From Bilabrum cf. latius (Eukaryota), in contig OZ237761.1 in the NCBI GenBank assembly GCA_965178125.1, positions 1 through 64,000 on the forward strand: a stretch of DNA of 64,000 nucleotides, read 5' to 3'. This document shows positions 5,801 through 57,578 of this stretch, piece after piece. Each line of letters begins with the position of its first letter. Positions within the stretch are counted from its first letter, which is position 1. The position numbers and the translations under genes were made by a program. The notes under the pieces were generated by a model that saw only the letters and a list, made by a program, of their open reading frames with translations, made no database searches and was not told where the DNA came from.

Positions 5801-6408
5801 GACTCATATTCGATGACCTGCAGCAACTCGCCAGGAGCCTGAATTGCTCTGATACAGTGCAGATGCTAGGCTCCGTGTTTGGTGACCAGCTAACCTCTGA
5901 GCTCTTCGAGATGAGCGCGATGATATTCCCGTCCCTGCGGGAGGAGTCCGAGACATTTGGAGTGAGTAACCTTGAGTCGCTGCTGACCGGCGTGCCATTC
6001 ATATCCATGGGGCTTGGTGGGTCCGTGGACTACACAATGCATGGGTATAACTCGCTCATCGTGCCCCAGGGGGATGCGCTGCCGATGGCCTTGCAGATGA
6101 TGGCTTTCATGAGGGGGCGCGCGGGCAGCCGGGAGGATCTCCGTGCCATGGCGAGGAGGCACGGGCACTCGAGCCAGGCCGTGGGGGAGAGGTTCGCTCG
6201 CCTTGGCGCCTGCTTGACGAGGTGTCCAAGGTTGAGTGAGGGGCTGGAAGACATGAATAGCGTGAGCGTTCGGATGGAGAGGCTCGCCCGGGATTTAGGC
6301 GAGTGGAGCTACGCTGCGGCTATGCGAGCCGGATCTGTCTCGGTGGCTTCTTTGCTGTGCGCGCAGGAGTGCGTGGCCAGCCATGGGTACCGACACGCAA
6401 AGGGCTAA
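2803..6408 (+). CDS. Glycosyltransferase family 4 (GT-B fold) protein with long N-terminal region, ~1201 aa with TAG=Gln
   Basis: One frame from ATG 2803 to TAA 6406-6408, with in-frame TAG at 4963, 5179, 5548 and 5734. GT4 motifs IGYLGRLGPEKG (~5230-5265), FKIIGSG and E-X7-E 'ETFGVSNLESLLTGVPFI' lie in the same frame but are separated by TAGs. N-terminal hydrophobic stretch YIVFMVAILSMCG suggests a signal anchor. Confidence 0.85.
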
Positions 6409-7276
6409 TGCTTCGTGTGTTCTTTAAATCGAAACAATACAGCGTTCGCACACGTTTCTTGGTTTCTTGCTCAAGTTGCGACCCTACAAATATTGAAGAT
6501 GAGGCGTCCACATTGCCGTCGCGGTTGAATCAGTACGAGAGCCGTGACCAGCTCACTTGTTTGAAATTGAATTTGCACTACAGTCTCAACAGGCTGTCCC
6601 AACTGCTGCAAGAGGTAAGGCCTGCTTCTTTCTGTATTCCGCTTTTCATGCTGCATTCCGCCATTGCTACCCTCTTCAATTCCTCTAACATTGGCATGTA
6701 GAGACGGGTGATCCGATCTATGATCCGGGTCACTCATCACCCCACACGCCCCATCTCAGCCTTCCCGGTCTATGCCTTTGCCTTTCAATCCAAAGAGTCG
6801 ACCAGATGACCCAACCAATCATCTTCTCCACTAAGCCTCCACCCACCTGGTGTACCATAGCCCCTCCCCACCCTGGCCGCCGCTCCTACTCGTACCTCGA
6901 CCGCTCACCCCTCCGATTTGCTGTGTAGCATCTGATCTGGCACCTCGAGCTGGTACTACACTCAACGAGCGACGTCAATTTCAGAGACCTAATTGGCCTC
7001 ACCAACGACGTGAAGGAGACTCATTTCACGAGCAGGTGCCATATGGCCTGAGGTTGCCCGCACAATCGATGCGGGCACCTTGGAATAAACCGACAAGGTT
7101 GCGCATAGTACCACTGCGGCTTTGGTCACATTCTAGGTCCTCATTCTCAGGTCTTCGTGACGTTGCGTTCGGCTAAACGGCGCCGCGCAAAACGGCGGTT
7201 CCGCAAAATAGTTTCGCCGGCTCACCAAACCGGTGCGAGGCGCCGCTAACGACTGCCTCTGCACGACGAAAAGCGA

Positions 7277-10245
7277 ATGAAGCAAAGCGGACGGAAACGA
7301 GCACCGTATACTTCCAATGCATGCTACGCTTGCCGAGCTGGCAAGGTAAGGCGGGCTACACGGAGGTACACTTTCCGCACCAACGCACTGTCTTTTCTAT
7401 CCATCTGACCGGTGAATTTGAACCGTTGAACTGCTTGCGGTCATTTTTCATCAACTATTCGTACATTCAAAGGTTACTGAGTCGGAAATTTGCGCCTTTA
7501 GGTCAGCTTGATGCCTTTGTGCATGTATTTTCCCGTGCGGCGCAGCGGAGATGTAGCGGCGCTCGTCCATGCGAAAGGTGTGCCAGGCTTGGGCGAGAAT
7601 GCGCATCAGGTGCTCCACTTGGTACGAAGCGTCCCCGAAAGACTGTGCGACAGCCCAATGCCGAACCAGAGGGATATGGACGGTCTCAACTGGCGGGCAC
7701 ATCTACTTCCAGTCGTCCTAGCGGTGGTTCTGATCGCTATTCGCGTGCAGACTCGGCCCAGTACAGCAATTCAAACAGTTTGCGTTCGCTTAATCATATG
7801 TCTGCGGAGAGTGACGGTACTCGGGCCGCCATTCTGAAGCGTCGCCGGATTGAAGCGGACTCGTCTGTACTTCTCGGGTTTGCCTCCGGCGTATAGCAAG
7901 CCTAGAGGCAAAGCATTGTTTCACCTGCTAGCATTGCAGGAGTTGATGCCCAGCGTGGGTCCGGCTCTGGCGGTAGTCATGTCGCTTTGCACTAGCAGCC
8001 GACCTCTGGCATCCAGCTCCAAGTCTCGCCAGCAACACACGCCCAATTTGCACGGATGCCCAATACCGGGCCCGTGTAGCCCGGTTTAAATATGGGAGGT
8101 ATGATGTTGTAGCATTAGGGTGGAATCTAGTCCACAGGTCAGGGTATCGCCGTTCTTTCTCCCGCAACAGCATCCCAACCCGCATTTGGGCCGCAGCGGC
8201 TCGCGCCATCTGTGGGCTATGCGGTCCCCCCCACTCAGCCAGCCCCCATGTACGTGTACATGCATTAGAACGGCCAGCTGCGAGCACCATCTGCCCCTCA
8301 GGTTGTCTATCAGGTGCCACAGCACCAACACCCCGGTGCCGGTGCCCAGCCACTGCAACCCATGCGTATATCAGAGGTATCGCAAGGCGCGCACTTGCTG
8401 GCTCACGGAGCAGGCGGCAGCAGGGCGGGGCCAGCTGCTGTTGGCATCAGACTCGATGCACTAGGGGGAGAGGGGGCTGCCCAGCCAGCGGATGTGCGCG
8501 CAGCTTTGTCCTATGGTACGCAGCCAGTTGCTTTTTCTTCGCCTGCAGGACAGGTGCAGCTTGGCGCCGCCTCAGGGGCGGGCTAGGGCCGTGTCGATGC
8601 CGGTGGATTTGTGCGAGAGAGGGCCCCGTTGGAGTAGAGGGTCACGGCTGGGGGACAGCGGCTCGCGGGGCCTGATGTTCCAGCGGTGGTGCCCTCCGCT
8701 ATCGCCAGCTCTGGCGCGTCACCCGTGGCCCGTGGGCCCAGCAGTCCGGCCCGGCTCGCAGCAGGCCGGGTCAGAGAGCAAGTGAGAGACTTCTGGCGGC
8801 GGGAGGGGGAGCGGCTCGGTCGGGAGCAGGGGTCTGGGCGGGGAGCGGGCAAAGAGAGCATCATCCGGGTGTTGCCTGGCGAGTGCAAGCGGCTGGCTGC
8901 CGCGGTGGGCAAGGTGCTCGAGTCGGACCAGGCGCTGGGGGCAAGGGGGGCAGCGGGGGCGGACGTGCTGCTGGAGGAGGACTAGTGGCTGGCTGGTCTG
9001 GACCTTGGCCAGGGTAAGGCAGCCTCGCAGCCATCTACTTCGGAGACCACTCTGGCTGGTGATCGCGCCGGAAGCACTATGTCGGCTGCATCACTTGGGG
9101 AGGGGGCCAGCGAGGGGGGGGCTGCGGCGGGGGAGCGGCATGGGGCAGATGGGGCAGCCAGTCGTCTGGCAGGGGATAGTGGAGATACCGAGGACGGCGA
9201 ATCGCCGATCGCTCGTCCGTCAAGAATGCGCGGGGGTGCGCCCGTAACCGGTGGCAGCCAGCGAGCCACCATGGTCATCTTGGAGAACGTGGCTCTCAAG
9301 CACCTACCCGTGCCCGCTGCCCGCATGGAGTTCACGTACGAGCCCAACAGGCCCTCGAGCCTGTACATTAACGACGCGGGGGCCGCAGTGCTGGGCTTTG
9401 GGTGCGAGGAGCTGTCCGGGTGCATCCGGCAGGGCTTCTTGCCGGTGGCCTACGATCCGTAGAGCTGGCTGGAGAGGGGCCGTGCGGTGCTGCCTGCGGT
9501 GCGGGACCGCCGCAGCTGGTTGGTCCACAGGTCCAAGATGCGGCGTGTGGTGAGAGGGGACGTGCAGCGGCCGTGGGAGGGCCTGCTGCTGCAGTACTTT
9601 GAGATGACAGAGACTCTGTACTTCGAATGGTTCGACAGTGATCAGTAGGAGGGGTAGTGTACAGGCTAGAAAACGGGCGGCAGTGGGCAAGCAGCCGGGG
9701 CCGAGCCTCGGAGCGGAGGTGGCTGCAACCGGTTCCGCGCTGCGATCAGTTACTTCAGTGATATCGTGGATCTGGACGAGACGCTGTGGATCTAGCCAAC
9801 GAAAGAGGCTTGGACTGGACGCGGGGGTGCAGGTCAAGCTATGGCCCCTTTCTCTTCGTCCTCATCGTCAGCAGCTTCGGGTGGCCGGCATCAGTACCAG
9901 TTCCCCTCTGGTGAGGCATGCGGCATGTACTACGTACGGCTGAACGAGGCGCATGGCCTTGGGCCCAAGCTGGAGGGGGTGCAGCGCACGGCAGGCGGGG
10001 AGCAAGTGGCTGTGGGGGCAGCCGGAGGTGAGGCGGCAACTGATGGGCCGTCCTCAAGCTCATCTGCTGGTGAGGCCACGCAGCTGACGCCTTCCGGAGG
10101 CATCGTCACGGTGGGCGCGAGCCCGCTGTTCCACCTCGTGTCACCCTACCACATGCTGGAAGCAATGGGAAGTGAAGCGCTTTCCTTGCCGGGCAGGTCT
10201 ATGGCGACTGGATCAACTATTACGAGTGGGGGCAAATAGCACTGA
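7277..10245 (+). CDS. Zn(II)2Cys6 (GAL4-type zinc cluster) transcription factor with PAS-like region, ~922 aa; exons 7277-7345 and 7546-10245
   Basis: Splicing GTAAGG(7346)...CGCAG(7545) assembles CYACRAGK|RRCSGARPCERCARLGREC, the C-x2-C-x6-C-x5-C-x2-C-x6-C pattern. Exon 2 stays open through 17 TAGs to TGA 10243-10245. PAS-like core LYINDAGAAVLGFGCEELSG at ~9360-9420. Confidence 0.85.
7346..7545 (+). other. Spliceosomal intron (200 nt, phase 0)
   Basis: GTAAGG donor, pyrimidine-rich tract and CAG acceptor. Removal restores correct zinc-cluster cysteine spacing. Confidence 0.88.
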
Positions 10246-10578
10246 CATGGCTAACATTGGCCTAAACAGTGGACTCCACTCCAGGTGTACATCATTCCTT
10301 CAGCCATGTGTCTTGATATGACTAACTTCAACACGATTCCATGATATGTTCCCACCGCTTTGATTGATGACGACTCTGAACACCATATCAAGCTATACAG
10401 TCTACTACATCGTGCATGCCATGCTTGCCGCTTCTGATGCATGCACGCATGCTTCTCGACCTACCCCACTCATCACACCAGAGCTGCAATAGATCGATCC
10501 CTGAAAATTAAATACGAATCAGTCTGAACCAAACAATACTTGTTATAGCACGCGTTTTATTGCAAGTTAATTGTCGGA

Positions 10579-11409
10579 ATGCGCACCATTTCTTTTGATG
10601 GAGCCTGTAACGGAGCTATTGCGGCTGGCGTAGTGGCTGGTGCGTGGCTGTACCTCGGATTGAACGGAAGGCAGTTTTTACTTCAAAGTGGGGTCTCTCC
10701 GCAGTCTGCGAGTGGAATGAAAGCAGTTTCAAATCTACTTGATGCCACTTCCAACGAGGCGGAACCGGAAGCCAGCAACGCAAAGGAGGCCCAAGCTTCG
10801 GAGGTGTCAGCACCATCACTGGCAAGTGCAGCGCTGGCCGTGCTCACTACTTTGTCGACTGGAGCTTACCGCATGACACCATCGCTATTTGATGCGATAG
10901 TTCCTGCATCGTCACTGCGTGTCCAAGCCATGCTTCGGTCTGGCTCGCAAGGCGTGAAAGTGTCCAGCGATGTGTGCGAAGCTGGCATTGCATACCTCGA
11001 GAATGTTGCTGACGTTGCCCTTGAATCGAGCAGGAGTTCTTATCAAAGGATGTCAATTGATCTTGGGATGATCCAGAAAGGAAGGCTTCACCCTTCGCAC
11101 CTGCGGGCCAACGCGATGGACCACTTCTGTCAGGGACTGGAGGAGGACGTGACAGATCCTTCCTACGAGATAAGGGATTGGCTTCAATCTGAGGCCTGCA
11201 AAGGTGTGTGCCACCCAGAAGTATGTGCACGACTTGCTAGGATTGGAGCGCTGCGACCAGTGATGCGAATTCCTTCAGACCAAGTGGCATGCATGCTCGC
11301 AAAGTTCAGGCAGTCACTGCTTGCTACTGCTATCCCGCACTTCCACAAAACAGTCAAGGCTCCGGCAGCATCCGAGCCGGAGCGTTCACGGATCGTACAA
11401 AACTGGTGA
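10579..11409 (+). CDS. Hypothetical protein, 276 aa, N-terminal hydrophobic segment
   Basis: ATG-to-TGA ORF filling the space between AT-richer flanks. GAIAAGVVAGAWLYLGL is a candidate TM helix. No family recognised and no internal TAG. Confidence 0.6.
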   Translation: MRTISFDGACNGAIAAGVVAGAWLYLGLNGRQFLLQSGVSPQSASGMKAVSNLLDATSNEAEPEASNAKEAQASEVSAPSLASAALAVLTTLSTGAYRMTPSLFDAIVPASSLRVQAMLRSGSQGVKVSSDVCEAGIAYLENVADVALESSRSSYQRMSIDLGMIQKGRLHPSHLRANAMDHFCQGLEEDVTDPSYEIRDWLQSEACKGVCHPEVCARLARIGALRPVMRIPSDQVACMLAKFRQSLLATAIPHFHKTVKAPAASEPERSRIVQNW

Positions 11410-14271: not shown

Positions 14272-16548
14272 ATGCAGTCGGAACGGTAGGTATCGCAAGC
14301 TGAACGGAGCTCACAGGCTGCCCGGTCGGCCATGGCCGGCTGGAGCGGAACCCCTTGGGAAGATGCAATGCCTGGTATATCATCGGGGATTGGTACTGAT
14401 TCTGCAGATCGACCAGTTCGCTCTGCAGGCCACATTGCGGTAGCTGGTCTGGTTGCTGAGCCAGCGTTGGTATCAAGCCACACTCGCGGGCAAGGGAGCG
14501 ATGGATTGCCAGAGTCAAGGGCTCACGCTGCGCACGGAAACATATACATAGGTGCAGTGGGTTCAGAAGCTGCGGACGAGAACATAAGGGGTTCCATGGC
14601 CCTGTCAGCCGGCCTGGCAACTGCGCTGCTGTCCGGCCACACAAACGATGCCTCTGCCACGGCGCCTGCCCACGCTCGGCAGCCGGGCAGACCGCGCCCT
14701 CTCGCCCCCCTCGCGTCCATGGATTCGTCGGAGAGAAGGGTGTCCAGGCGGGCGCCAGCACTGGCCCAGGCTGTGTCGCCCTCACTCTAGTACTCGTCCT
14801 AGTTGCGAGACGCACGCAGCCCAACCGTCGGCGCCCGCTCGAACGGGAGCCCGCGCACTCGTCACACGCGGAGGGGCTCTGCCTCCGGATCCCCACTCGG
14901 TGGCAGGGACCACCGTCGACGAGTCAGAACGCACTCATCACACCGTGCCGACCTCGCGACGGCCATGGGTTCCCCGCTACGGCCCGCTGCGGCCGCAGCC
15001 GGGATGGGGTCCCCTTCTCTGCACTCGTCACACGGATCTCCCCGCTCCAGCGCCCTGTGGAGCGTCCGTTCCTCCCTCCGCTCCTCGGCACGGCCCGGCC
15101 CCCTGCCCCGCGCGCCCGTCAAAGTGCTAGATGCCCCCGGGCTGCTGGACGACTTCTACCTGCAGCTGCTGGACTGGGGCCGGGGGGAGGACGCTGTGGC
15201 GGCCGCGCTGGGCTCCGTGGTGTACCTGTGGAAGGCCCGAGGCGCCTCTGTGCAGGAGCTGTGCGACGCAGGAGAGGGCAAGTCAGTGTGCGCGCTGCGG
15301 TGGAGGCCGTCGGGTGCATCGCACGGCGGTGCGGGCGGGAGCAGCCGGCTCGCGGTCGGCCTCAGCGACGGGCAGGTGCAGCTGTGGGACCCTGAGAGGG
15401 GCCGACAGATCCGTTCACTTGGGGGCCACAAGGGCCGCGTGGCCTCCATCGACTGGGCGGCCGAATCCGCGGGGCACGGGCTGCTTGCCACGGGGGGCGC
15501 GGACGGGAGGGTGCTCCTGCGGGACGCCCGCTCCCCGCGATCCGCTGAGGCCGCGCTGTCGGGGCACCGTCACGAGGTGTGCGGCCTGCGATGGAGCCCT
15601 GACAGCCGGATGCTGGTATCGGGCGGAAATGACCACACCGCGGTGGTGTGGGCACCTGCTGGCACCAGAGGGTCTTCATCTTCATCTTCATCTTTATCGT
15701 CCGACGCGCCGGCTACCCCCGGCGCGGGCCTGTGGCCGGGCTAGCGCGGGCACAGCGACGACCCCCCCGAGTCGGACTCCACGGGTGGATTGGGATCTGG
15801 CTCCGGGTTCAAGCAGAGGGCGGGCAGAGGGCCGGGTGCTCGGCGTGGCAAGGGCTCTGCGGCCATCTTGCACCGCATTGCAGTGCACAAGGGCGCGGTG
15901 AAGGCGCTCTCGTGGCACCCCAGCGAGGCCGGCGTGCTTGCTACGGGGGGTGGGGCCGCCGACCGGTGCTTGCGGATCTGGGACGTGCGCGGCGCCGCCC
16001 CTTGTTCCTTGGCCCGAGTGGACACCGGTTCGCAGGTGTGCAACGTGGGCTGGGCCCCTTCTGGGCGCGAGCTGTGCACCACTCACGGGTACTCAAGCCA
16101 CGAGGTAGGCGTCTGGGGCTGGAAGGGGGGCTCGGGTGCAGCGCACGGTGGTGCGAGGCGGCTGGTGCGCACCGCGCGCCTCAAGGGGCACACGGCGCGG
16201 GTGCTGTTCCTTGCGCTGGCCCCCGATGGACAGACGGTTGTAACCGGCGCAGCGGACGAGACGTTGAGGTTTTGGCGGGTGTTTCAGCCCTCGGGCGGCC
16301 TGCGAGCGGGGGCGGCCAGCCAGGGGTCGCCCATGCCGCCGCCCAGCCCGGCGCACGGAAAGGGCGTGGTGCTTGCACCCGCAGCTGCGATCCATCGGAG
16401 CTCTGTGGCGGCGGCGGCTGCGTCTGGGAGGCAGGGAGCGGGGGCCGATTTGGCGACCGAGGTGCACGCAGGCGGCGCGCGAGTGGGCGCTGGGGACGGC
16501 GGGCTGCTGGCATCCTCCACGCCGGGATTGACGGCGACGTTGCGGTGA
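14272..16548 (+). CDS. FZR1: APC/C co-activator of the Cdc20/Fizzy family, most like Cdh1/Fizzy-related; WD40 protein, ~758 aa (alternative start 14332)
   Basis: Motifs PVKVLDAPGLLDDFYLQLLDW, GHRHEVCGLRWSPD, HKGAVKALSWHP, VDTGSQVCNVGW and GHTARVLFLALAPDGQTVVTGAADETLRFW, plus a terminal LR resembling the IR tail. The two halves of the propeller are in one frame joined through TAG 15742. Other TAGs at 14287, 14788 and 14800; stop is TGA. The family is secure, the Cdh1 versus Cdc20 assignment less so. Confidence 0.9.
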
Positions 16549-16717
16549 CTGCGAGTAACAGTGCAGCATAGGATCGTATGCACTGCTGCAAATGAAGCCT
16601 GGCACAGTATTCTCAACTCCACCTTGGGAGCCGCCAACCTTCGACTCGGAGCGGTTTAGGTGACGGCGTCTTCCGCGAATACAACTTTTGCGACACTGCG
16701 ACAAGCCTACGTTCTTC

Positions 16718-36300: not shown

Positions 36301-36906
36301 ATGCCCATGCCAGCTCCGGACGGGCAGGCACCAGTCCCGAGCGGGGGCCTAGACAGCACGGGTGGCGACAGCAGCGCCAGCAGCGGGCTGGAAGGCATCC
36401 TGTCGGCAGAAGACATTGCGGCGATCGAGCAGGCCCAGGAGGCGCAGGCACTCGTGCAGAGGGTGACGAGTGGCATGTCCGGTGTAGAGAGGAGGCCATT
36501 GATTGACGGCGTAGTGTTCAATGAGGGTGCCAACCGGGAGCAGCCGGAGGCGGAAGAAGCGGCCTAGCAGGACTTCAGGGGTGCGGAGGGGCGGAAAGGG
36601 TAGGAGGAGAAGCGGGGGTCTCCAGCACCAGGGCATGGCCGCATGGGCGGAGGCGTGGACGATGTATCAGCGGATGGGAACAACGACGACAATCCGCTGG
36701 AGGCTCTGCGTGACTGCGCTGCGCTGCTGCGTGGAGGAGAGCAGGCGACACCGGGTGGGTCGGTCGATCTGGAGGCGGTTGCCAGGGCGATTGAAGCGGC
36801 CAGTCGAAAGGTAGAGTCTCAGCTGGCGGAGCAGTAGCGATCCATTCGATAGCTGGCCGCGCAAGGCGCCGAGCTTGCGACTCTGTTGGCTGACGGTGAC
36901 ACATGA
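18373..36906 (+). CDS. Giant single-exon protein (~6,177 aa with TAG=Gln); N-terminus chorein-N-like, candidate VPS13/ATG2/BLTP bridge-like lipid transfer protein
   Basis: 18,534-nt frame from ATG 18373 to TGA 36904-36906 with ~52 TAGs and no TAA/TGA (gaps between track ORFs read manually). The N-terminus ALKSYFP...KLRLPFE...IELISVQLDVSKL...LPVEVVVEGVHLRMQ and MVPGLNLSVRDLTLVVED resemble chorein-N. Alternating-hydrophobic beta-strand segments recur along the length. The ORF is secure; the family is an inference. Confidence 0.8.
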
Positions 36907-44551: not shown

Positions 44552-47500
44552 ATGAAAAGCCGCACAGCAATCCGCAGCAATTCGCATGTTAAGTCTACTG
44601 TGATTCAAAATCCGATGGTCGCAGGGCGAGCATAGCGCAGTTCTCAGCGATCCCCCCTTGCGACCGATACGCCCGCACCGGCGGAATCCGATTCTCAGGG
44701 CCAAGATGCAACTTCAAACGAGTGGAACAACTACTTAGACAAACAAACAGTATCGCTAAAGGTTGCACGGCCACGGGTACGAGTTGATGTTTGCTCTGCT
44801 GCTGTATTTGCGGAACGGCAAGCCAACAAGCAGAATCCAGATGGACTCGCAGGATATTTCGCAAGCACGCTGTCGTGCGGAGCGTGCGATGATCCTACGG
44901 TTCAGTTCAACGTGCTTCATCCAGTTTCGTGTGAGTTCGTACCCAATCAGACCCCCATACCCGCTACAAGAAGCCCTTTCATATGCTCGCGACGGTCTTC
45001 AATGCCATGTCTGCAGTGCGGCTCACACCTGGTTCGCTGACCATGGTGCTTTCAAACCCTGGAGGTGGTACAAGCACCCTGCTGAAGCTTATTTCGGGGC
45101 GCCAGCTTCCGCACGAGGGAGAAGTTATGTTCAATGGATGCAGTTCCGTCGATCTCCAGCGAGTCTCTGGGGCGGACCACCGCAGAATTGCATCGTATGT
45201 GGGCTAGGCTGACGTACACGAGCCAATGTTTTCAACGCGAGAAATGTTTGAAGTAAGATTTTGCATATTAAGCTGCCATGGTGCCCCGCTTAAGTGACTT
45301 GCATGGTTCAATGCAATCTCTAGTCGACGCCACCTGGGCGCAGTTTGCTGCTGGAGCTACGTTTGGAGGCATGCAGCAAGAGATTGCGGATTCTAAAGAT
45401 AGATTCCTATTTCAGCCAGCGGCTCGTGCCACCGCAATGCTCAAACTGCTGCGGTTGGAATCCTGCGCCGACACGAGCGTCGGCAGCGCAACCATTCGGG
45501 GCATAAGCGGCGGCCAGAAGCGCCGAGCGTCTCTCGGAGAGGTGCTCTTGACCGAACCACGGGTGCTTTGTGGGGATGAAATCACCGCAGGTCTTGATGC
45601 TGCTGCTGCCGAAGAGGTGGTGCTCCGCCTCAGGGAGTATGCCCGAGTTACCGACGCGACCGTGGTGCTTGCGCTGAAGCAGGCCACCCCGGGCATGTAC
45701 GAGTTATTCGACGAGGTGGTGCTCCTAAGTGACGGGCACGTGATCTACCACGGGCCTAGAGAGGAGCTCGAGGGAAACCTGGCGGCCAGGGGGTTCCCCC
45801 CGCCCCAGGAGGGGGACTTCTGCGACTGGCTAGCCGCACTCGTCACAGACCCCGCCTTGGCCACACCTGCTGGTCACACGGGACCTGTCCCGACAGCAGA
45901 AGAACTGTCGACTGGTGTCAATGGCTGGTACCGCAGCGACGCCTTTAAGAGGCACGTCGACCGGCGCTCGCCCCCTAGGTCGGCACTGGGGCAGCAGCTG
46001 CTACCCCAGGGGCAAGACCCAAGCGCTGACTACGATGACCTCGGGCTGTTCCTGCGGACAAGCCCAGCCCTTGCCCTGCGGTTCGGAGAGGGTAGTAGGA
46101 TGAATTTCTGTTCGAGGTTCGGCACTATGATGGCGAGGCAGGGCAAGCTGATGTGGAGGCACCCGGTGCTGACCAGGGTCCGCTGGCTCGAGTCCATTCT
46201 GCTGGGGCTGCTGTATGGGGCGGTTTTCTTCTAGCCCGACGTGAACGATTTTGCGCCCAGGCTTGGTGTGAGTAGGCTACGTGTCAATCGATTGTGATCG
46301 TCGAGTGCATTTGCCGAACCCTAGCTCTTCTCTGTGCTCGCCGGTTTCTATCATCTCGACCGCTCGCAGCTCGCAACTGTAGCGCTGGTGCACGTTGCTT
46401 TTGATTTTGCCGTGAGTATTCCGAACGCCACTGTGCCATGCATTTGCTAGACATCATAGGCGTGCGGACGTCATGTGGCTGTATTCTGCTCATTTGCTAG
46501 TTCCGCAGGAAGTGCACGCTGGTATTGACGGCAGAGCTGTGGCGTACAAGCTCTCCCGGTCGGGCATATTCGACGACTTCATGTACATCCTTGCAGTCTG
46601 CCTTGTGCATGCCCCAGTCGCCCTGATCAACGGACTGTGCTTGACTGTGTGCGTCTATTTTCTTGCCGACTACTCACTGGAATTCACTCGATTCATGGTA
46701 TACTGGGTGGTGCTGTTCAGCGCACAGATGGCAATGTCTGGTTGGTTTAGGATGCTGACTTACATCAGCCCGTCGTTTGAAGTGGCGCACACGCTTGGCG
46801 GCACTGTAGTTGGAATCTTCCAACTGACGGCGGGATTCCTGGTGACCCGCACCAACATCCCCATGTTTATGCGATGGCTTTACTACGTGAACCCGCTCAG
46901 CTGGGCGCTCCGTAGCCTGGCATTGAATGAGTTCTTCGCTACCAGGTACGACAAGCCTGTGGAGCTGGGCATAGAAGGGATACGCAACGGGACGGTGGGT
47001 CTACATACCTACCAAGCCATGCAAAACAACTCGAGCACGCTTAGAAAGCGAGAGGCCTTCCTAGCCGTCTTCGACATCGAGGATGATTCGTAGCTGGCGT
47101 GGATGTGGGGAGCTGTGGCGTACATGCTGGGCACATGGTTCCTCTTCGGCATCGTTCTGTCCTACTTTGCTCTGGCCAGCTGCAAATATGACTCGAGGCC
47201 GGGGACGCAGCGAGTGTATGACGAAGGCATCCGCAGGCAGCTCTCAAGGAGGCGCTCCTTCATGCGAAAGCAGTCCCTGTCTACCGCGCGGTCCATCAGC
47301 TCTGCCAAACGGGCTGCTACTGGACCGAGCGCCAGCACCGAAGAGGACGAGTTTAACATGGTAGGGGGCTTCAACAGAACCAACGCGGCTGACACGTTGG
47401 AGTTAGACACAGTCGAGCTTGATGCAGGCACCACCACGTCCTGCCATGAAGAGCCGTTCCATGTGCCTTGTCCTGCCAGTTCAGACGTGGAGAGATCTGG

Positions 47501-49583
47501 TTCAAGCATTCAAGACGGGAACGTTCAGTGTGTCCCGGTCGAGCTGGCGTTCAATGACATTCAGTACGTGGTATCTGTGCCTTCTTCAGGCAGTAACCGC
47601 GCAGGCACCGCACTCTCGGAATCATAGCAATTCCATGCATTTGATGCTCTTCGGGCGTAGGCAGGGTATACCCATGTAAATGGCCGTGCGGGTGGTATCG
47701 GCTCTGGCCCCATCGCTGATGGCGGTGCCAGTCAGCTGCCACTGCTCCAGGGAGTATCCGGTATTTTCAGACCAATGCGTCTAGTTTGCTTGATGGGTGC
47801 GTCAGGCGCGGGAAAGACAACATTACTGGATGTACTCGCTGGCCGCAAGACCCAGGGCACGGAATCAGGCGTCGTTCGTCTAAATGGGCGGCCAGCATCG
47901 AAGCAATAGCGGGCTTCCTTGACTGCATATTGCGAGCAGACCGACCAGCACTTGCCGACATTAACGGTCGAAGAGTCACTGGATTTCTCGGCTAGGCTGA
48001 GGCTAGACGCAGATACTGCAGAGAACGAGAGCAAACGGCACGCAATCGTGAGCCATGTTATGGAACTGCTTGAGCTAGACTCCATCAAAGGCCGGCCTGC
48101 TGGCTCTCTGTCTGTCGGCGAGGCCAAGCGCCTCACCATCGGCTGCGAGCTGGTGGCCAACCCGAGCCTGCTCTTCCTGGACGAGCCAACTACAGGGTTA
48201 GACTCTAGATCTGCCGTGCAGGTGATGCATGTGCTGCAGAATGTGGCACAGACAGGTCGCACCGTGGTTTGCACGATCCACCAGCCGAGCTATGACGTGT
48301 TCACATCCTTTGACGACGTGCTACTGCTAGCCAAGGGCGGGCGGCAGGTGTACTTCGGTCCCATTGGCGACCACTGTGAGGACCTGGTGAGGCACATCGA
48401 GGCACATCCAACTGCTACACTGCGCCCGATCAGAGTAAATCCGGCAACTTGGATGCTAAATGAGCTGGAGGCGGAACGGGAACGAGTGGACGCATTATTG
48501 GCAGGCGGCGGTACATCCGGTACGGAGGGCCAACCCCTGGTACTTAAGCAGCTCAGATCGAGCCTCCTTTTTGAGACGTTCAGGGACTCCTAGGCATTTG
48601 CGTCTTTATCCCGGGAGCTAAAGCACAGCTAGGCTGCCCATTCATCCGCTGCCGGGCGCACGCAGGCTCGCACCAGCAAGTTAAACGACCTGGCTAGATT
48701 CGCGGCTGTCCTAGAGAGAACCTTTACGGACAGCTACCGTGATATAACCTTCAATGGATCAAGGTTTACAACCCTAGTTATGCTTGGACTCATCTTTGGC
48801 TTGCTGTTTTTCGGGTTAGATTTCACGTCAAGTCAAGGCGGCGTGCTATCCATGGTTGGGGTGCTGCAGAGCATGGCATCCTACAGCGGGATCCAGTCAC
48901 TTGCGGCGCAGGTGGTGCTACTATACAAGTATAGACCGAACTTCTACAGAGAGAGGGCACTTGGGATGTACGGCACCACGACCTACTACCTGACTATGGC
49001 ACTGAAGGAGGTCGTGTACCTCGCCTGTCTTTGCGTGGTATTCACTCCGATTGTGTACGCCTTCGTTGGGCTTCGGTTCGACCAGATCAGCGTGTTTGCC
49101 GAGACGATAGCCAGCGTATTCATCGTGGGGTTGCAACTGTCCCTCATGTCACAGTTCTTTGCTGTGGCTTTTTCGAACGTGCACACGGCCGAGTTTTTCG
49201 TCGGGGAGCTGTTGCTCATCCAGACCATTTTCAACGGGGTATTCACGTCGGGCGTACAAAACTACAAACCTGCTCTGCGCTGGCTGGCGTACCTGAACCC
49301 ACTCTTTCTCGTAAATGTGCCTCTGGCCCTAAACTAGGCTCACTGCTTCGATGCTGGGCCCCCGGCTGACGAACTAGCTCGTATTGAGGCCGGGTGTCCC
49401 ACAATTTCCGTGGTGAACAACGGTGTCGAGCTGGTGCAGACGGTGGAAGGTTATGTAGAGCAGCTAGTGGACGCGACCTATGCGGAACGTTGGAAGTACT
49501 ACGTCGGAATATTGGCGATCACTGCTGGGTACCAGGCCCTTGGGTACGTGCTTGGGCAGGTGCTTGACTTCTAGAAGCGCTGA
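44552..49583 (+). CDS. Full-size ABCG / pleiotropic drug resistance (PDR)-type transporter, NBD-TMD-NBD-TMD, ~1,551 aa; exons 44552-44930, 45017-45252, 45344-46267, 46370-46411, 46509-49583
   Basis: NBD1: [14 protein letters not shown][TAG][28 protein letters not shown]2: [74 protein letters not shown]. Two TM blocks; C-terminus LDF[TAG]KR-TGA. 11 in-frame TAGs. Start could be 44615. Confidence 0.93.
44931..45016 (+). other. Spliceosomal intron (86 nt, phase 1)
   Basis: GTGAGT...CTGCAG. Removal gives [20 protein letters not shown], matching the PDR pre-Walker-A segment. Confidence 0.8.
45253..45343 (+). other. Spliceosomal intron (91 nt, phase 0)
   Basis: GTAAGA...GCGCAG. Removal gives STREMFE|FAAG (family pattern TVRETLEFAA). 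Confidence 0.85.
46268..46369 (+). other. Spliceosomal intron (102 nt, phase 0)
   Basis: GTGAGT...TCGCAG, preceding a 42-nt hydrophobic exon [14 protein letters not shown]. Confidence 0.72.
46412..46508 (+). other. Spliceosomal intron (97 nt, phase 0)
   Basis: GTGAGT...CCGCAG. Removal gives [18 protein letters not shown] (family pattern AE......R.VFYK). Confidence 0.75.
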
Positions 49584-49756: not shown

Positions 49757-51910
49757 TCAGCGAGTTGCCATCCCAAGCGGAGGCACCACCCAGACAAACT
49801 CCTCGGCAATGACGCGCCCAGTGCCCTCACCAGGGCATTCCACAGCATGCCCATCGCAAGACTTGCTGCAGCTCCAGACGAAGACCGATAGAAAATCAGT
49901 CCCTAGCAACAGGCCGGCCGGAGCGCCAGCAGGGCGGCCTGTTTCTGCTTCTGCTATCAGGGACGGCAGCAGCTGCACCTCAAAATCGCAGGTAGCGCCG
50001 CACCGGCGGCACGGTGGCACGGTAGGCCTCACCTTTGACGAGGCCGGGGGTGCACCTGTTGGCCACAGGGGTTCGCCGCCGTACGCATATCGAGCCAACT
50101 ACCGGGGCGCGCAGGCCACTCGTGCTCTAAACGCATCCAATGAAGCCTTTATTACCAGCGACGAGGCGCCGCTTTGTCTAGCTGCGCACACGCTTCCGCC
50201 GATACTGGACTCGCCACCTGAAGACCCCTTCCCCTTGCCATGAGCTCCACGCCTCAATGGCTTCCCCTTCCCTTTTACAGTGCTTCCGTCACCAGAATGT
50301 CCAGCAGTTCTCCATCCGCCCGTGCCTCGCCCCGCTAATCCTGGTCCCTCCTCTTTCTCCGCCGTCTCCGATCTCCAGCTCGCCACTGAGGAAGCCGTTG
50401 AGCGCCGGCCTGCCCCACTGTTGCCTCCCTGCGGCCGCTATCCTCGCATCCAATCCCTGCGCAGGTCATCGTCATCGCTGTCGTCTTCCTCCTGGCCCGG
50501 CCCCATGCTTCGACTAGAACCGATCGATCCGTCTCCAGGGCTTGTTCCCACCGCAGTGCTCGGCAACAAGTCCAGAAGAGATCCTGCACCCGCACTCGCG
50601 GCATGCTTCTCGTGCTTACCTCTGCCTTTTCCCTTTCCTTTCTCTTTGCCTTTTGGTGTGTGCAGTGCATGCTCAGCCCCTCCCTTGGCTGCACCACTCC
50701 CATCGCCGCTAGTCATACCGGCGTCTTCCTTCTCCTGTGCAAGGTACCTCTGATAGAGCTCTTCAATATGCGCTGCGTCCCCACTACCTGCAGTCATCGC
50801 GCCGGTTCCAGATCCCGCTGCACTCCTGCCGGTCCCTACCCTTTCCCTGTCTCTTGCTTTCTTTTCGGCAGTCAGGGCCTCCCACGGCTCCTCCTCGCAT
50901 TTCACGGGCATCACAGGCAGCACGATTCCGCTGTCCGTGCCCGCGCCTGGCCCGATCGAAGGGTCCATACTAGCACCTGCTGCTTCCGCTGCACCAGTAG
51001 CAACAGGGGCGCTACTAGTTGAAGCGAAATCAGTAACGCCGGCATCGGAGTCCTACTTTGTCACCCCCGTCGCTGTGCTTCCCACCTGCCTGAACGTGCT
51101 AGCAGACCTGCTGGGTGATCCGGAGGTAGCATCTGCCCTATCTGAGTCTGGCGCTGGCCCAGTGCCGTGCGACTATGTATCTGGCCCGATACAGGCAGCA
51201 AGATCAATGCCTTGCGTAAGCACAGGGCTGCCACTAGCAGGGTCAGAGGGATCGGCTGCAGCTGCAGCGATCGATCCAGTGGCGGAAGGACCCGAGCTCG
51301 TGCCAGTGGTCGGCTCTGTCCAATCCACTGCTGCTGCAGTGTCCCACGGATTTGGTTCGCTGCCAGCAGCCTGGTCTGGGGAATCCACTGCGGCCCAGTC
51401 CGCTGCGCCGTCCTCCGTTGCCTCACCCTCTGGGACCGGGTCTCCAGGGGCGCCCCATGCGCTGCTCGTGTCTTGGTCCAGCCCGGACCAGTCATCAGCG
51501 GCATCTGGTGTGACACCAGACGAGCTAGGTGCGCTAGGCTAAGTCGGACTAGAATCATGACCAGCTCTTGTACTGGAGGTTGGCTCTACTGACGGCTCCG
51601 CCGCCCTGCCGCCTGGGGCTTGGCTGCGAAACACGCGTACTGTTCCAGGCAATCCAGCGCAGTCACTGCGGCGACATACGAACGTATTCAGATATCTCTT
51701 CTCAGTTCCGTAGCATGGAGCGTGAAGCTGCATCAAGTGAATCATTTTGTCGCTGCAATTTCTGCATGTTGGCGTTCTTCGCGGCAACGGTGGTCTCGGA
51801 GCTCCGCCAACGAAAGATGCTTGTGACAAACTTGTGGTTTTCCCCTACAAATCGCAAGACGCGACAAGTAAAACTGCCTCTTCATGCGATCTTGGTCCCA
51901 CAAACGACAT
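49757..51910 (-). CDS. PDCD2L: PDCD2-like / Tsr4 family protein (uS5 chaperone, PDCD2_C domain), ~717 aa
   Basis: Minus-strand frame from ATG 51910 to TGA 49757-49759 through 6 TAGs. N-terminal SFVGGAP...CRNCSDKMIHLMQLHAP...RYLNTFVC....C...VRVFRSQ. C-terminal AFRARVACAPR[TAG]LARYAYGGEPLW...PPCRRCGATCDFEVQLLPSL...DF.SVFVWSCSKSC...EEFVWV. No MYND finger seen. Confidence 0.87.
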
Positions 51911-52068
51911 CACGCGCTAAATCAGGCCGAATAGTTGGATTCTATCCCTTTATCTATTTGGCTCCGGATGTGAGGTACTGGGGTTAGTAACGTGCGAGTC
52001 AAACAAAATCGGAATTTCTCACATCTTGCCAAACTGCAACAGTTGCACTTACCTTCGCACCTAGGGCT

Positions 52069-53835
52069 ATGAAGACTGTTGTTCCTTTGCTTGCCTCGAT
52101 ACTAGCAGCGAGTGCGCTGGGATCACCGGAAGAATTATTGAGAGATGCGGTTTTGCAGTCTCTGGGAGCAGGCTTTGCACGTATGTCTCATCGGCAAGAG
52201 AGTCTTGGCGCTTCCGTCGGCCATGTCTTGGCAGAGATGCACAGCCGTCTATCTGGCTAGTTTGGATCCAGTGGACGTCGGGCGTCTGGGAGTCCTCCAC
52301 CGGGTGGCAATGGGACTGCCCTGCTGCCTGACGGGTACTACAGGATTATTCCTACCTTTGAAGGCGGCGCCACTCTACCTGGCAAGCCAGCGGTGGCTCG
52401 GAACGGCGCCAGCCCAGTCGTATCTTACGAGTCGAGGTGTTTTGCCTCGAACGAGGCGAAGGTTTCATCTGTCTCAGACGGCGCGATCGACTTGCAGATC
52501 ACCGGCACCGGCCCGGCCAAGGGGGCCGGCCTGCTGACCCCTTGCACTGAGCTGTACCTCATCGTGCACCCAGGGGACCTGCAGTTCGCCACCATCAAGA
52601 CGGACGGATCAAAGCAGAGCGAGTCCACGACTGTGAAGATGTCCTATAACATCACGGCGCTGCCAGAGGGCACGCAGGAGTGGCTCGGCCACAGCGGCGT
52701 GCGCGTGATGCGGTTCCTTTACGAGCCCCTGGACCTGATCGGAGACCTGGCCGATACTCTGAGCCTGTACATCCCTGCCCTGGCCGAGCCCACCCTGGAC
52801 GCCGCCAGCGCCGAGAGGAACCTCGAGCTGCTGCACGACTACTGCGGGGGGGTGCAGATGCCCCCCCGGAGCAAAATCGTCACGGGGATCCCAGAGGAGG
52901 AGATCAAGTCGGGCACGCTCCTGGCCATCAACCGCCTGGACGGGCTGGGCACGCTGGAGGACTGGGCCACAGGTGCCCGCACCACCCACATCGCCACCAT
53001 GATGTGGCTCGGGTCGGGCGCTGACAGGGCACTCCACGTGGTGGAGAGCACCGACACGGAGAGCTACTGGCCCAACCCGAACATCCAGAGTACCCTGCTC
53101 AAGGAGTGGATCCCCCTAGCCGTGGCTGCCAACTACTCAGTGGCGCTGCTGCCCCTCAAGCCAGAGCTGCAGGCCAAGTTCGACGCCGGAATCGAGGCGG
53201 CCGAGAACTTCATCTCGGGGTCTCTGGGCGAAAAGTACGGCTACAGGTCATTTGTGGCGACTTTCTACGATGTTCCCGTGGGATCACTTCCGTGGCCCGC
53301 CACATGGCAGGCGGTGGAATCGATCTTCCAGCTGATCGGGCTGGTGGCGCCCTCGATCCCCGAGCTCATCATGAACGAGGGTCTCAACAAGAGGCTCAAC
53401 TCCACGGGACTGGGCATGGTGGCCGCGGCGAATTTGGCCAACCAGAGGAACGTGAGCTGGGGCGAGCTGCTGGCTATGCCGGAGCAGGATTCGTGGGTGT
53501 ACTCGGACGGGCCAGCGAGGGTGTGTGACGTCTACTCGTGCTCCATCTACAAGGCCGCCGGCCTCTTCGGTGACCTGACCGACAAGATCCAGTGCGGCGA
53601 GTTTTAGAACAGGGACGTGTACTCGCTGGATTTCTACGACGTAGCCAGCGAAGACGGGCTGCATGACCCGCGCCCCGCGGCGTGCAAGGAGGCGGACCCG
53701 ACGCTCCCCTACTGCATGCTCATTGGCACGAGGCAGATCGAGCTGAACGGGGTGAACTCGGTGGCGCCGTACGCCGGGATGAACGAGAGGTGCGCTTCCA
53801 CCCCGCCACACTACACACGTGCAGAGGGGTGCTGA
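52069..53835 (+). CDS. Secreted protein, ~588 aa, probable permuted papain-like (NlpC/P60 superfamily, YiiX/YebB-like) domain
   Basis: Signal peptide MKTVVPLLASILAASALG. One frame through TAG 52258 and 53605 to TGA. His-before-Cys motif order IKSGTLLAINRLDG...TTHIA...LHVVES...GEKYG...PEQDSWVYSDGPARVCDVY..IYKAAGLF. Confidence 0.72.
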
Positions 53836-54161: not shown

Positions 54162-57100
54162 ATGAAGCGAAAGCGTGAGGCAGGCGCCAAAGGGGCCGGA
54201 CCAGATTCGAGCGACCCAACGAAGCAACCCAAGGCTGCTAGAAAAAGCACAGTCTCGGCCTGTCTAGCTTGCAAAAGAGCCAAGCGTTCTTGCTGGGCTG
54301 AGAGACCATGTCCCCGATGTGTAAAGCGCGGGATTCCGTGTGTCGAGGTGTTGGACCGCAGGAGCAAAGCCTTTCGTAAAATAAAGTCTGCTGTGAGCGG
54401 GTAGGCGTCATCCTCCATCGTGGTGTCCGTGCACGGGAAGTCCGATAGAACTACTGTGTTCAAGAAAAACCTATCAAAAGGTGCGCGCGAGTCTCTGAAT
54501 GCGGCGTCCAGTGACAGCGCAGACCACGCCCCATCGGATCCCACTACGTCAGAAGACAGCACAGAGTTCAGGCCCAGTACGTTGTTGGATACATAGGAGA
54601 AAACAGTTCGCTGCGATCAGACAGTGAATGATCGGAAATGCAGTAGACCATCTGGCATTGCTGGCCCGCACCAAGCTGCTGCCAGTAGAGGGATACTCCG
54701 TTCTCGTACAGCTAGCCTACCTGCCGCTGGCATGTAGTCTTCCTCCTCTGTATCGTACGCGGAGCAGCAGCTGAGGATCCGTCAGTTAATGGCGCTTGGA
54801 CCCCCGCTATCCATGTCCCAGCCGATGCTGACGATGCAGATCGACAGCAGGGGCGGTCTCCTAATGACGGTGCGGCAGGACCCCACGCACCCAGGTCTGC
54901 AAGCTTTGCTTGGCCAGGACTACAACCGCACCGTTTTCGTGCCACCGGCCATCGAGTCGGCTGCGAACGGGGTGTTGCTGCCGGATGGCGCTCGGCCTGT
55001 GCTACCCCCCCAAGCGCTCCAGCTGCAGAGTGCCTACCAGATTCAGGCGCACGACGCCTACATGTTCGACCAGCTGAGCCGGTCCCCCATCCCAGTGATG
55101 CGGCAAACCTACAATATGCTCACTCTGCAGCCGATGCAGCTATTCATGAACGCAGCAACTCTCGGCATGGTGTGCGGGGAGGAGGAGGTGGCGGTGGCGT
55201 ACATGGGCACGTCTGACTAGCTGATGGAGATGGACCCAATCAGCGCCGTGCTGTAGTCCACCAGCCAGTTGGGAGCTATCATCGGCAGGCGAAGGACGTT
55301 CACGCTGCCTGGTCAGATGTGCAGGCATTTCTTCGTGTCTGAGAAGGCAAAGCAGGAGGCCATGGAGTTTGTCGGATTGGTGGAGGAACAGGGCGAATCC
55401 TACACCAGTGCGGCACGCAAAGCGGTTGCAATCGTCGGTGAGAGACTCGCGCAGGCTCAGGCTCAGCACCACACATCTGCTGGTGCATCGAAGGCGAGCA
55501 GCGGCTTTGGCTCGGCATCGGGCGGAATGGCGGGGGGTGCACGAGCGAGAGCAGGATCAGGATCCTCGTCAACTGGGACGGATACATAGAGCAGCCTGAG
55601 CGGAGAAGGGGAGGCCACCCATTAGCAGGCAGGGGAGGAGGAGGAGCCGCTCTTCGACTTCTTGACGGAGCGCGTGGCCTCGGTGCTCTTCTACGTCGAG
55701 CATGAGATTACTGCCGACTGGGTAGGCACTGCCCCCCGGGCGTTGTGCGGACAGCTCAAGAACTGGGAGAGTCTCCCGAGTAAAGAGGAGCATCTCGGGG
55801 AGTTCCGTGGCCTTGCTGACCAACGGATCCAAGGGCCTTACCTGCCATGGTGCTGGGCCGCCGCAGAAACCATTGAAGCGAAGCAGAAGGAGGAGCCTTT
55901 CCGGCCGTGGTCGACCCGACCGACAAAGTTACCAACTAGACGTTTGGATGGATCTGTCTAGCCCCTTGCTTCTGGGACAGGGCATCCCCCAGTCCCGCAT
56001 CCAGCAGCGCAGAGTGGCGATGCAGCGACGCCACCTTCTAGCCGTGACGTGACGCACGGCCAGCACTTGAGCCACCCTTCCTCTGGACAGGAGTCGTCGG
56101 GTGCATCGGTCCCTATTGATGGCGTACAGTCAAGTAACCCTTCGTCATCATCCGGAAAAGGATCCTCTGGCGCATCAGCGGCCACCGACCAAGACAACAT
56201 CGCCGACGATGCGTCCAGCTTGCCACGCGGCAGGGCTTCCGCGATGCATGCCACCTCGACCAGCAGCCGACCTGGAAGTGCTGCGTCTGGAGTATTGCAA
56301 GCCGGCAGTTCCACCACAGCTCATCAAGGTCCAGGCCACGATTGGATGCAGACTCCGGCCAGTGGAAGCCCCAGCGCCGGATCTGCTGGTAGCAGCTTGC
56401 ACATGCCAGCAGGGGAGGGCAACGACCGCGCCGGGCGATTCGCCCTAGGCAGCCCTTAGAGCTTGGCGCTTGGCTCCTTGGGAACCGGCTCAGTACTCGA
56501 TGATGGTGCCGGCAAAGGCGCCGGCAATGACGATGCGTCCTCTCTTGCATCACATGGGATGCAGCCCATGATGCTCGGCTCTCCCTCTGCTGGTTTCGAT
56601 GCTGGCGCCGGCGAGTCGAAGCAGTCCCGATCGTGGGGTGGATTCGAGCCGGGTGAGGTGGCACTCACCCGTCCCATTTCAGCAGCAGACACACACAGGA
56701 TGGACCCGCCGAGGGGAAGCACAAAGACATACGTGGAGGCGCCGTCCTTGGGCCTGCCATATTCGGGGTCATAGCGATTCCTGAGTCCGGGGTAGGCAAG
56801 TGGTCAGCAGGCCATGATCGAGGAGGGGATGCCGGGTGCACACGGTGCAGGTGCTAGCAGTGGTGGATCGGCGTATGGAACCGGCGCTGGAGTAGGTGTC
56901 TCGTCATCGTCAAGCAGTGCAATGATTGGTGCTGGCAGCAGCAGCAGCAGCAGCAGCAGCTCTCATGCAGCTGCAGCTGGTGCAGGCCACGGCATGAGCA
57001 CACTGCAGCCCATGCCTATGGTGCACCGCTTCGGCGGCGTCAGGCGCTCCGATGATCCAGGCCACGGTACGGCTGCAGGTCAGATTTGGGATCTGGACGA

Positions 57101-57578
57101 GATCAGCGAGGTGTCCGGCTCAGTCATGTCCAGCTTGCCGCCCTCCAAGCGTGCCCGGACGGAGCGGGGCGGCGCCGGTGGCACAGGCAGAGCGGTGCCG
57201 CGGATGGATGGTGAAGATGGATTCGGATCACCTCTCGGGGAGGCATCAGGCACTGGGTCGTATGCGTACGTATGGCCTGAAGCGTCTGATTCCCCAACTC
57301 ATCACGAATTGCGCCAGGATGCCGCGGGTGGTGCAGCGCACCTGTCTCCTGCCGACCGTGCCAGACTCCGGTGGATCCCGCGTGAGCTACTCGCGGTGCT
57401 GGACCCAGTGGACGTGCAGATGCTGAAGAGGAAGGTCGTTCTGCAATCGGAGCTGCAAGCATGGCACTTCGATTTCCGCAGGAGGCTGCAGATGCCGGGG
57501 AGCAGGCTGGGTGAGGAGCTGACGAGGTTGATCCTGAGTGCCTCGAGCGGGGATGCGAGGATAGTTGGACCATCGTAA
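54162..57578 (+). CDS. Zn(II)2Cys6 zinc-cluster transcription factor, ~1,138 aa
   Basis: ACLACKRAKRSCWAERPCPRCVKRGIPC near the N-terminus. The frame continues through 11 TAGs to TAA 57576-57578, with Ser/Gly/Ala low-complexity regions. Confidence 0.85.
56935..56960 (+). repeat. (AGC)n microsatellite encoding poly-Ser within the second zinc-cluster gene
   Basis: gcagcagcagcagcagcagcagcagc read as AGC Ser codons. Confidence 0.8.

Follow-up and report, generated by a model that had tools for sequence, protein, structure and literature searches.

Contig OZ237761.1 of assembly GCA_965178125.1 (Bilabrum cf. latius) was analysed over its first 64,000 nucleotides (nt), a stretch that we refer to as the window. 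A TTAGGG-type telomere at its start marks the window as one end of a linear chromosome of the nucleus. Read with the standard code it is a mosaic of short open reading frames (ORFs), whereas taking TAG as a sense codon yields 13 long ORFs, the largest of 6177 amino acids (aa) and another of 2364 aa. Two of these ORFs are pieces of one ABCG transporter gene, and the window therefore holds 12 genes. An earlier reading of the sequence alone (the sequence-only reading) had proposed that UAA and UAG are uncoupled in this genome, with UAA still a terminator and UAG a sense codon. Here we analyse the code of these genes and consider it likely that UAG encodes glutamine (Gln, Q) and that UAA and UGA are stops (NCBI table 15), with UGA as the main terminator of this nuclear code.

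Genes of the window and their in-frame TAG codons

With TAG taken as sense, the 13 ORFs contain 128 TAG and neither TAA nor TGA in 17,871 codons, and end in TGA (11 cases) or TAA (two cases). Correcting for the ABCG gene gives 130 TAG, 0 TAA and 0 TGA in the 18,047 frame-0 codons of 12 genes, ten of which end in TGA and two in TAA (6406-6408 and 57576-57578). The sequence-only reading had reported the same ten TGA and two TAA ends, and no internal TAA despite more than 120 internal TAGs; both counts are reproduced once the ABCG introns are removed. The other frames of the same DNA look different: frame +1 has 160 TAG, 67 TAA and 277 TGA, and frame +2 has 134, 53 and 350, respectively. The coding frame excludes TAA and TGA but contains TAG as often as the other frames do.

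The zero count for TAA is partly circular, since the ORFs were delimited at TAA. It is nevertheless not an artefact of cutting ORFs at this codon, because three of them (18373-36906, 37242-44336 and 46473-49583) keep their ends and their number of non-standard steps when TAA is also read as sense. These three TAA-independent ORFs hold 72 TAG and no TAA in 9,577 codons. In the two-fold codon families of the window, the ratio of A-ending to G-ending codons is 0.21-0.35 (CAA/CAG, 161/537 = 0.30). At such ratios, a TAA synonymous with TAG would be expected 15-25 times in the three ORFs and ~27-45 times alongside all 130 TAG, and none is observed. There is thus strong support that coding frames lack UAA.

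Part of the gene models can be compared with transcripts. Near-identical sequence occurs in public runs X1-X8 (coded names), which come from four studies and contain 0.36-0.98 of the sampled words. Contigs of four runs were aligned, to positions 44,001-64,000 of the window only. No run is recorded as RNA, and X5 and X6 were taken as RNA solely because their contigs skip GT..AG introns. Four such segments of the ABCG gene are skipped in X5 and X6 and not in X1, and these X5 and X6 contigs are therefore spliced transcripts. Joining ORFs 45278-46297 and 46473-49583 with an upstream exon gives one 1551-aa ORF with only TAG inside and no other stop, and the apparent TGA end at 46295-46297 falls within an intron. 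The four confirmed introns are 86-102 nt long, start with GTGAGT or GTAAGA and all end in GCAG.

The spliced contigs include the TAGs at 44633 and 45205 and show 0 letters that differ from the window. Similarly, X5 contigs of unspliced regions cover 6/6 TAGs of the PDCD2 gene and 2/2 TAGs of the gene at 52069, again with 0 differing letters. Since spliced transcripts retain UAG, RNA editing is excluded at the covered sites. As a separate observation, the runs X1-X8 are filed under four different coded organism labels, and the organism may accompany, or contaminate, other sequenced organisms.

The features of the window are collected in Table 1. In the first Zn2Cys6-type gene, removal of the predicted intron (GTAAGG..GCGCAG) keeps the frame and restores a Cx2Cx6Cx5Cx2Cx6C six-cysteine cluster; this intron is a prediction from outside the read coverage. 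The 6177-aa ORF, scanned against Pfam as two pieces, matched no family. The G+C (GC) content at third codon positions (GC3) is 0.51-0.79 across the genes, and the best named homologues are 35-49% identical, coming from green plants and algae for CDH1 and from oomycetes, plants and algae for ABCG. The genome is that of a GC-rich, intron-poor eukaryote, and the window belongs to a nuclear chromosome.

Table 1. Genes and associated features of the window, with positions counted from its first letter.
Feature	Position	Strand	Description	Evidence
Telomere	1..2277	.	CCCTAA (TTAGGG) repeats	read directly from sequence
Glycosyltransferase group 1 gene	2779..6408	+	1209 aa, 4 in-frame TAG, TAA end	Pfam Glycos_transf_1, 1e-13
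TAA stop codon	6406..6408	+	clean example of a putative terminator	homologue ends, coding score, no donor
First Zn2Cys6-type gene	7277..10245	+	17 in-frame TAG, TGA end	Pfam; predicted intron 7346-7545
ORF, gene status uncertain	10540..11409	+	289 aa, 1 TAG, TGA end	no family match (Pfam)
CDH1/Fizzy-related APC/C activator	14272..16548	+	4 TAG, ends ..LR then TGA	Pfam WD40_CDC20-Fz 1.9e-87; PDB Fizzy-related 3.6e-74
PNP_UDP_1 phosphorylase-superfamily gene	16688..18016	+	1 TAG, TGA end	Pfam
Uninterrupted ORF	18373..36906	+	6177 aa, 52 TAG, 0 TAA, 0 TGA, TGA end	
MIOS-like gene (zinc_ribbon_16)	37242..44336	+	2364 aa, 12 TAG, TGA end	Pfam; orthologue in L002
Full-size ABCG/PDR transporter	44552..49583	+	1551 aa spliced, 11 TAG, ends ..F-TAG-K-R then TGA	spliced contigs, homologues
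ABCG introns	44931-45016, 45253-45343, 46268-46369, 46412-46508	+		GT..AG joints in X5, X6 contigs; not skipped in X1
PDCD2_C-domain gene	49757..51913	-	718 aa, 6 TAG, TGA end	Pfam; RNA contig 49662-51921, 0 differing letters
Gene with hydrophobic N-terminus	52069..53835	+	588 aa, 2 TAG, TGA end	X5, X6, X7 contigs cover ~52048-54015; no family match
Second Zn2Cys6 gene	54162..57578	+	1138 aa, 11 TAG, ORF ends TAA	Pfam Zn_clus 3.4e-5
Candidate intron holding TAA 57576-57578	57575..57633	+	59 nt, GTAAGT..CCGCAG	donor/acceptor pattern as in confirmed introns
Gene running off the window	58480..63999	-	>1839 aa, 9 TAG, TGA end	no family match

The amino acid read at TAG

Alignments of the ABCG transporter with its homologues place several TAG codons at glutamine positions. 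The TAG at 45205..45207 (+) lies in the Q-loop of nucleotide-binding domain 1, and of the 117 homologues that align there 116 have Q. In the second membrane domain, the TAG at 49335..49337 (+) falls in a column with Q in 62/80 homologues when aligned with MAFFT, and by pairwise BLASTP Q is found in 9 of the 30 homologues aligning there. The last TAG of the gene belongs to the C-terminal ..F-Q-K-R motif, and its MAFFT column is Q in 47/80 homologues; by pairwise BLASTP 11 homologues align, with leucine (L, Leu) in four and Q in three. The columns that hold the remaining ABCG TAGs are variable or gapped. In the PDCD2 protein, the TAG in the context ..APR-TAG-LARY.. may correspond to a conserved Gln of the C-terminal domain; a search of the PDB with this domain found no relevant chain.

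A diverged relative offers a second set of aligned codons. A search with the PDCD2 C-terminus returned an 80-aa fragment with 65% identity. Scanning metagenomes with P0241 found nothing, while a scan with alignment A1 found the loci L001 and L002, which count as one relative because their sequences are the same. L002 is 8,835 bp long with a GC content of ~0.6, and under the standard code its ORFs reach at most 416 aa. With TAG as sense, it encodes an orthologue of PDCD2 (606 aa seen, 2 TAG) and one of MIOS (2267 aa seen, 23 TAG, with TAGs within a glutamine run), both ending in TGA. The two genes contain 25 TAG and 0 TAA in 2,873 codons, and their ORFs remain the same if TAA is read as sense. 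The ends of the orthologues match between the window and L002.

The orthologous proteins are ~52% identical, and 29 TAG sites can be aligned between them. Pairing over all sites is noisy in low-complexity regions, and information came only from a well-aligned subset, defined as sites where five or more of the eight flanking residues are identical. Of the seven TAG sites in this subset, three have CAA or CAG as the partner codon, two have TAG and two have a Leu codon. In fact, two of the CAA/CAG pairings (one CAA, one CAG) have 8/8 flanking residues identical. TAG is common to the window and L002 at MIOS 746, MIOS 1642 and PDCD2 605 (50099-50101). Because these three orthologous sites are common to the window and a relative with ~52% identity, the comparison suggests that the UAG change is old and clade-wide, predating the split between the lineages of the window and L002. 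The sequence-only reading had assigned TAG to glutamine, and the homologue alignments, the L002 orthologues and the spliced transcripts retaining UAG bear this out; on these alignments, glutamine is strongly supported as the residue at UAG.

Another relative shows how such genes fare in existing annotation. The protein call of P0243, a closer relative of the glycosyltransferase with 77% identity, stops exactly one residue before the window TAG at residue 986, the truncation to be expected when a gene of this kind is called with the standard code. We also note a difference in gene order. MIOS and PDCD2 are adjacent, convergent genes in L002, while in the window (37242-51913) the 5-kb ABCG gene sits between them, and this gene was apparently gained or lost between the two.

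Termination and alternative readings

The glycosyltransferase gene gives the clean case of a TAA end. In the protein, the final conserved motif is found eight residues ahead of the TAA at 6406, and two homologues end at a similar position: P0242 (395 aa, 41% identical over 358 residues) ends one residue past its match to query residue 354/360, an end that may not be a true stop, and P0317 (1113 aa) ends two residues past its match to query residue 352. The sequence-only reading had named homologues continuing past this TAA as a possible refutation; instead, these two end within eight residues of it. The surrounding sequence (GGGC TAA TGC) has no donor-like GT. Reading through the TAA would reach the next stop 40 codons on, and these 40 codons have a log-odds coding score of -0.66, with GC falling from 0.65 to 0.46. 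For reference, the codon log-odds score of 445 equally long coding windows is never below -0.40 and has a median of 0.33. Judged by these features, the TAA at 6406 is credible as a working terminator.

The TAA at 57576, at the end of the second Zn2Cys6 gene, is less straightforward. The coding score after it is -0.57, again below the -0.40 minimum of the coding windows. The codon also lies within a candidate intron (context TC, then GTAAGT), whose splicing would add two codons followed by TGA and give the same length as a diverged copy of the gene. At 59 nt the candidate intron is below the range of the confirmed introns, and the would-be second exon is overlapped by a small nucleolar RNA (snoRNA)-like match at 57584-57699. 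No spliced contig was found across the candidate intron among the contigs on 44,001-64,000, where the window's own copy is poorly covered at this position.

The diverged copy of the second Zn2Cys6 gene carries 32-33 differences in ~1.3 kb (~2.5%), with the variants at about half depth in X1. Its contigs leave the window at 57553, 23 nt upstream of the TAA, and their 30 loose letters, read by eye in frame, contain a TGA one codon later than the window TAA. The loose-end sequence from 57553 is absent from the window. In an X1 contig, a 72-nt piece that ends at 57553 is joined, in inverted orientation, to sequence beyond the window end (past 64000). The diverged copy (54162-57553) is a paralogue, a second haplotype or part of a subgenome. 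Judging from the copy and the coding score, the second Zn2Cys6 gene ends within a codon or two of 57576, spliced or not. The proposal that TAA still terminates finds support at 6406, where homologue ends and coding score agree with it, and is left ambiguous at 57576 by the candidate intron. Termination at UAA is supported by one apparently clean case and one ambiguous case. For TGA, the stop of the ABCG gene coincides with the C-terminal ..F-Q-K-R of the homologous proteins.

Several observations weigh against the proposed code, both in its amino acid and in its terminators. When all 29 alignable sites are taken, the partners of TAG in the orthologue comparison are three TAG, four Q, four serine (S), four alanine (A), three proline (P) and others, Q being no commoner than S or A. 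The two well-aligned Leu partners are CTA or TTG codons, the TAG at ABCG residue 994 falls in a column with threonine (T) in 88/120 homologues, and Q is not enriched within three residues of TAG (33 versus 30.3 +/- 5.5 at random sites). With regard to the terminators, the second TAA may lie in an intron, which leaves no more than one or two genes with a TAA end; both L002 genes end in TGA, and TAA termination accordingly rests on very few cases. Finally, two genes (the first Zn2Cys6 gene and ABCG) have a TAG two to three codons before their TGA. The Leu pairings, the T-dominated column and the pairwise result at the last ABCG TAG, where L is slightly more frequent than Q, would fit a code in which UAG is sense but specifies another amino acid, most plausibly Leu as in the uncultured rhizarian exLh, or more than one. 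To this we give only a very slim chance, given the nearly invariant Q of the Q-loop, the two further ABCG columns dominated by Q, and the CAA and CAG partners at both sites with perfectly identical flanks. The TAGs close to TGA raise the related possibility that UAG is ambiguous, being sense internally and a terminator at some gene ends in a context-dependent manner. Termination at those two TAGs would be indistinguishable from termination at the TGA, the sample comprises only 12 gene ends, and near gene ends UAG might also act as a terminator. This appears quite improbable: none of the 12 genes needs TAG as its end, ten of them have conserved domains or long coding stretches after the last TAG, and the near-end ABCG TAG itself lies in a column where Q is the commonest assignment by MAFFT.

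The role of UAA is open to two further explanations. In one, UGA is the sole efficient terminator and UAA is unassigned or avoided, with the TAA at 57576 being intronic and that at 6406 an exception or part of a hidden intron. TGA does end ten of the 12 window genes and both L002 genes, and the GTAAGT..CCGCAG segment around 57576 agrees with the four confirmed introns in its splice sites. We nevertheless regard this explanation as unlikely, because 6406 has no donor-like sequence, two homologues end near it, composition and coding score shift there, and total avoidance of TAA over 18,047 codons is the expected product of a functioning stop. In the other, UAA and UAG both encode Gln (table 6), TAA is rare owing to high GC, and the two TAA ends are coincidental. 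The GC3 of the genes makes A-ending codons a minority, and reassignment of both UAR codons (UAA and UAG) to Gln is by far the commoner change (PMC5304391). However, the tens of TAA codons predicted from 130 TAG are missing, as they also are in the three TAA-independent ORFs and in L002, neither TAA is followed by a coding signal, and at the first of them homologues come to their end. The probability we attach to it is accordingly minimal. Lastly, in-frame stops ordinarily raise the suspicion that the codons are untranslated, as in pseudogenes, assembly errors or RNA-edited codons. Nothing specific in the data favours this, and it has practically no weight in view of the 130:0:0 distribution of TAG, TAA and TGA in frame, the same sequence in runs of four studies, the spliced transcripts that keep TAG, and the three identical orthologous TAG sites in a diverged relative.

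Mechanism, known codes and the chromosome end

By analogy with other UAG-only lineages, the table 15 code proposed here would involve two changes: (I) UAG would be decoded by a transfer RNA (tRNA) of the type tRNA-Gln(CUA), which cannot pair with UAA, and (II) recognition of UAG by the release factor eRF1 would be lost or weakened. Only the anticodon CUA allows a tRNA to read UAG and leave UAA unread (Panek et al. 2017, PMC5304391). A single mutation separates tRNA-Gln(CUA) from tRNA-Gln(CUG), and the former is known from UAR=Gln organisms (PMC5304391). In Iotanema spirale, the GTS motif of eRF1 has changed to GGS and the contact to the G of UAG is lost, while standard-code relatives keep GTS (PMC9161772). 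The sequence-only reading had stated that neither gene is visible in the window. In agreement with this, ARAGORN found no tRNA gene in the 64-kb window, and Pfam scans of its proteins found no eRF1 domain; ARAGORN also found no tRNA in L001 and L002.

UAG-only reassignment to Gln is described for Iotanema spirale, Protocruzia tuzeti and two lineages of phyllopharyngean ciliates, and the ciliate codes of this kind arose independently several times (PMC11687900). UAG means Leu in exLh and Ser in Scotinosphaera, with UAA kept as stop (PMC5304391, PMC11687900). The precedents listed by the sequence-only reading (Iotanema, the rhizarian and the phyllopharyngean ciliates) match what these two papers report. 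Iotanema, a member of Fornicata, resembles the window in reading UAG as Gln and in keeping UAA as a terminator, and the same mechanism is predicted for it, namely tRNA-Gln(CUA) and an altered eRF1 (PMC5304391, PMC9161772). Its dominant stop is UAA, in contrast to TGA in 10/12 genes of the window (PMC5304391, PMC9161772). Moreover, Iotanema is known from a transcriptome, whereas the window is chromosome-end DNA with ~60% GC and TTAGGG telomeres, and nothing in the window places the organism in Fornicata.

The phyllopharyngean ciliates and Protocruzia tuzeti use the same codon table as the window (PMC11687900). The window is unlike the ciliates compared in its kilobase-long TTAGGG telomere, its chromosome of more than 64 kb, its ~60% GC and its very long genes. 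Presumably, DNA with such a telomere and composition and with a 6177-aa intronless gene does not look like a ciliate macronucleus.

TAG-recoded phages of NCBI table 15 have formally the same table, with TAG as Gln and TAA and TGA as stops (PMC9523058). They use bacterial ribosomes with RF1/RF2, however, while the genes of the window belong to a eukaryotic nucleus, where introns are spliceosomal and one release factor serves all stops. The nuclear genomes of exLh and Scotinosphaera uncouple UAG from UAA as here, and differ in the amino acid, which is probably Gln in the window. Table 6, in which both UAR codons mean Gln, is used by many ciliates, ulvophyte green algae, hexamitin diplomonads, Streblomastix and Amoeboaphelidium protococcarum (PMC11687900, PMC6299283). 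These lineages read UAG as Gln like the window, and tRNA-Gln(CUA) is known in some of them; UAA is also sense there, unlike in the window with its complete lack of in-frame TAA. In the context-dependent codes of Condylostoma, karyorelicts and Blastocrithidia, the same codon is sense internally and a stop at gene ends. In the window, TAG is not required as the end of any of the 12 genes, two genes have a TAG shortly before their TGA, and TAA is never internal.

The window probably represents a new lineage carrying the table 15 code, a kind of code that is rare and already known. More tentatively, and with somewhat less than even confidence, we propose an independent and old origin of this UAG=Gln/UAA-stop code in an undescribed GC-rich, intron-poor clade with TGA as near-universal terminator. 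Members of the proposed clade are visible so far only as metagenome and run contigs. In a literature search, with subscription papers and supplements outside its scope, Iotanema was the only GC-rich eukaryote outside the ciliates for which this code turned up. If the proposal is true, no lineage of this kind has been represented by chromosome-scale DNA before, and the changes in tRNA(CUA) and eRF1 would be directly readable.

In eukaryotes a single release factor reads both UAA and UAG, for which reason the two codons are nearly always reassigned jointly, and the few lineages that separate them are natural experiments on third-base discrimination by eRF1. Most known cases come from transcriptomes or metagenome bins. 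Here, the genomic DNA is anchored at a telomere, public runs contain transcripts, and the code is shared by at least one diverged relative; consequently the whole assembly should yield the suppressor-type tRNA, eRF1 and a genome-wide tally of stops. Annotation with the standard code will shatter the genes of this genome, and protein calls of relatives already stop at TAG.

The remaining observations concern the chromosome end itself. Across the telomere repeat, one minus-strand frame contains 380 TAG steps. Just inside the telomere, at 2278-2500, lie about four G-rich subtelomeric repeat units of ~60 bp each (..GCAAGCAGGTTGGGTGTG..GGGGCCATGGT..). The GC content per 4-kb bin of the window is 0.53-0.68 (~60% overall), and a gene-free, AT-rich gap at 11700-13100 has a GC of 0.33-0.40 versus ~0.6 elsewhere. 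Direct repeats of 160 and 246 nt, each present in two copies, follow this gap at 13028-13902; the copies are 97-99% identical and spaced 437-457 nt apart.

Downstream of the second Zn2Cys6 gene, contig depth at 57880-58100 rises to ~2000 in the DNA-like run X1 and in X5, against ~35-40 for the surrounding DNA in X1. This segment is a high-copy element, and it matched no Rfam family at E<=1. Over the whole window, no Rfam family was found at the gathering score. The snoRNA-like segment at 57584-57699 (+) weakly matches the fungal C/D-box snoRNA family RF01509 Afu_300 (29.3 bits, gathering score 40, E 0.0027). AUGAUGU and CUGA box-like motifs can be seen in it, and the 3' region of the second Zn2Cys6 gene may harbour a snoRNA here.

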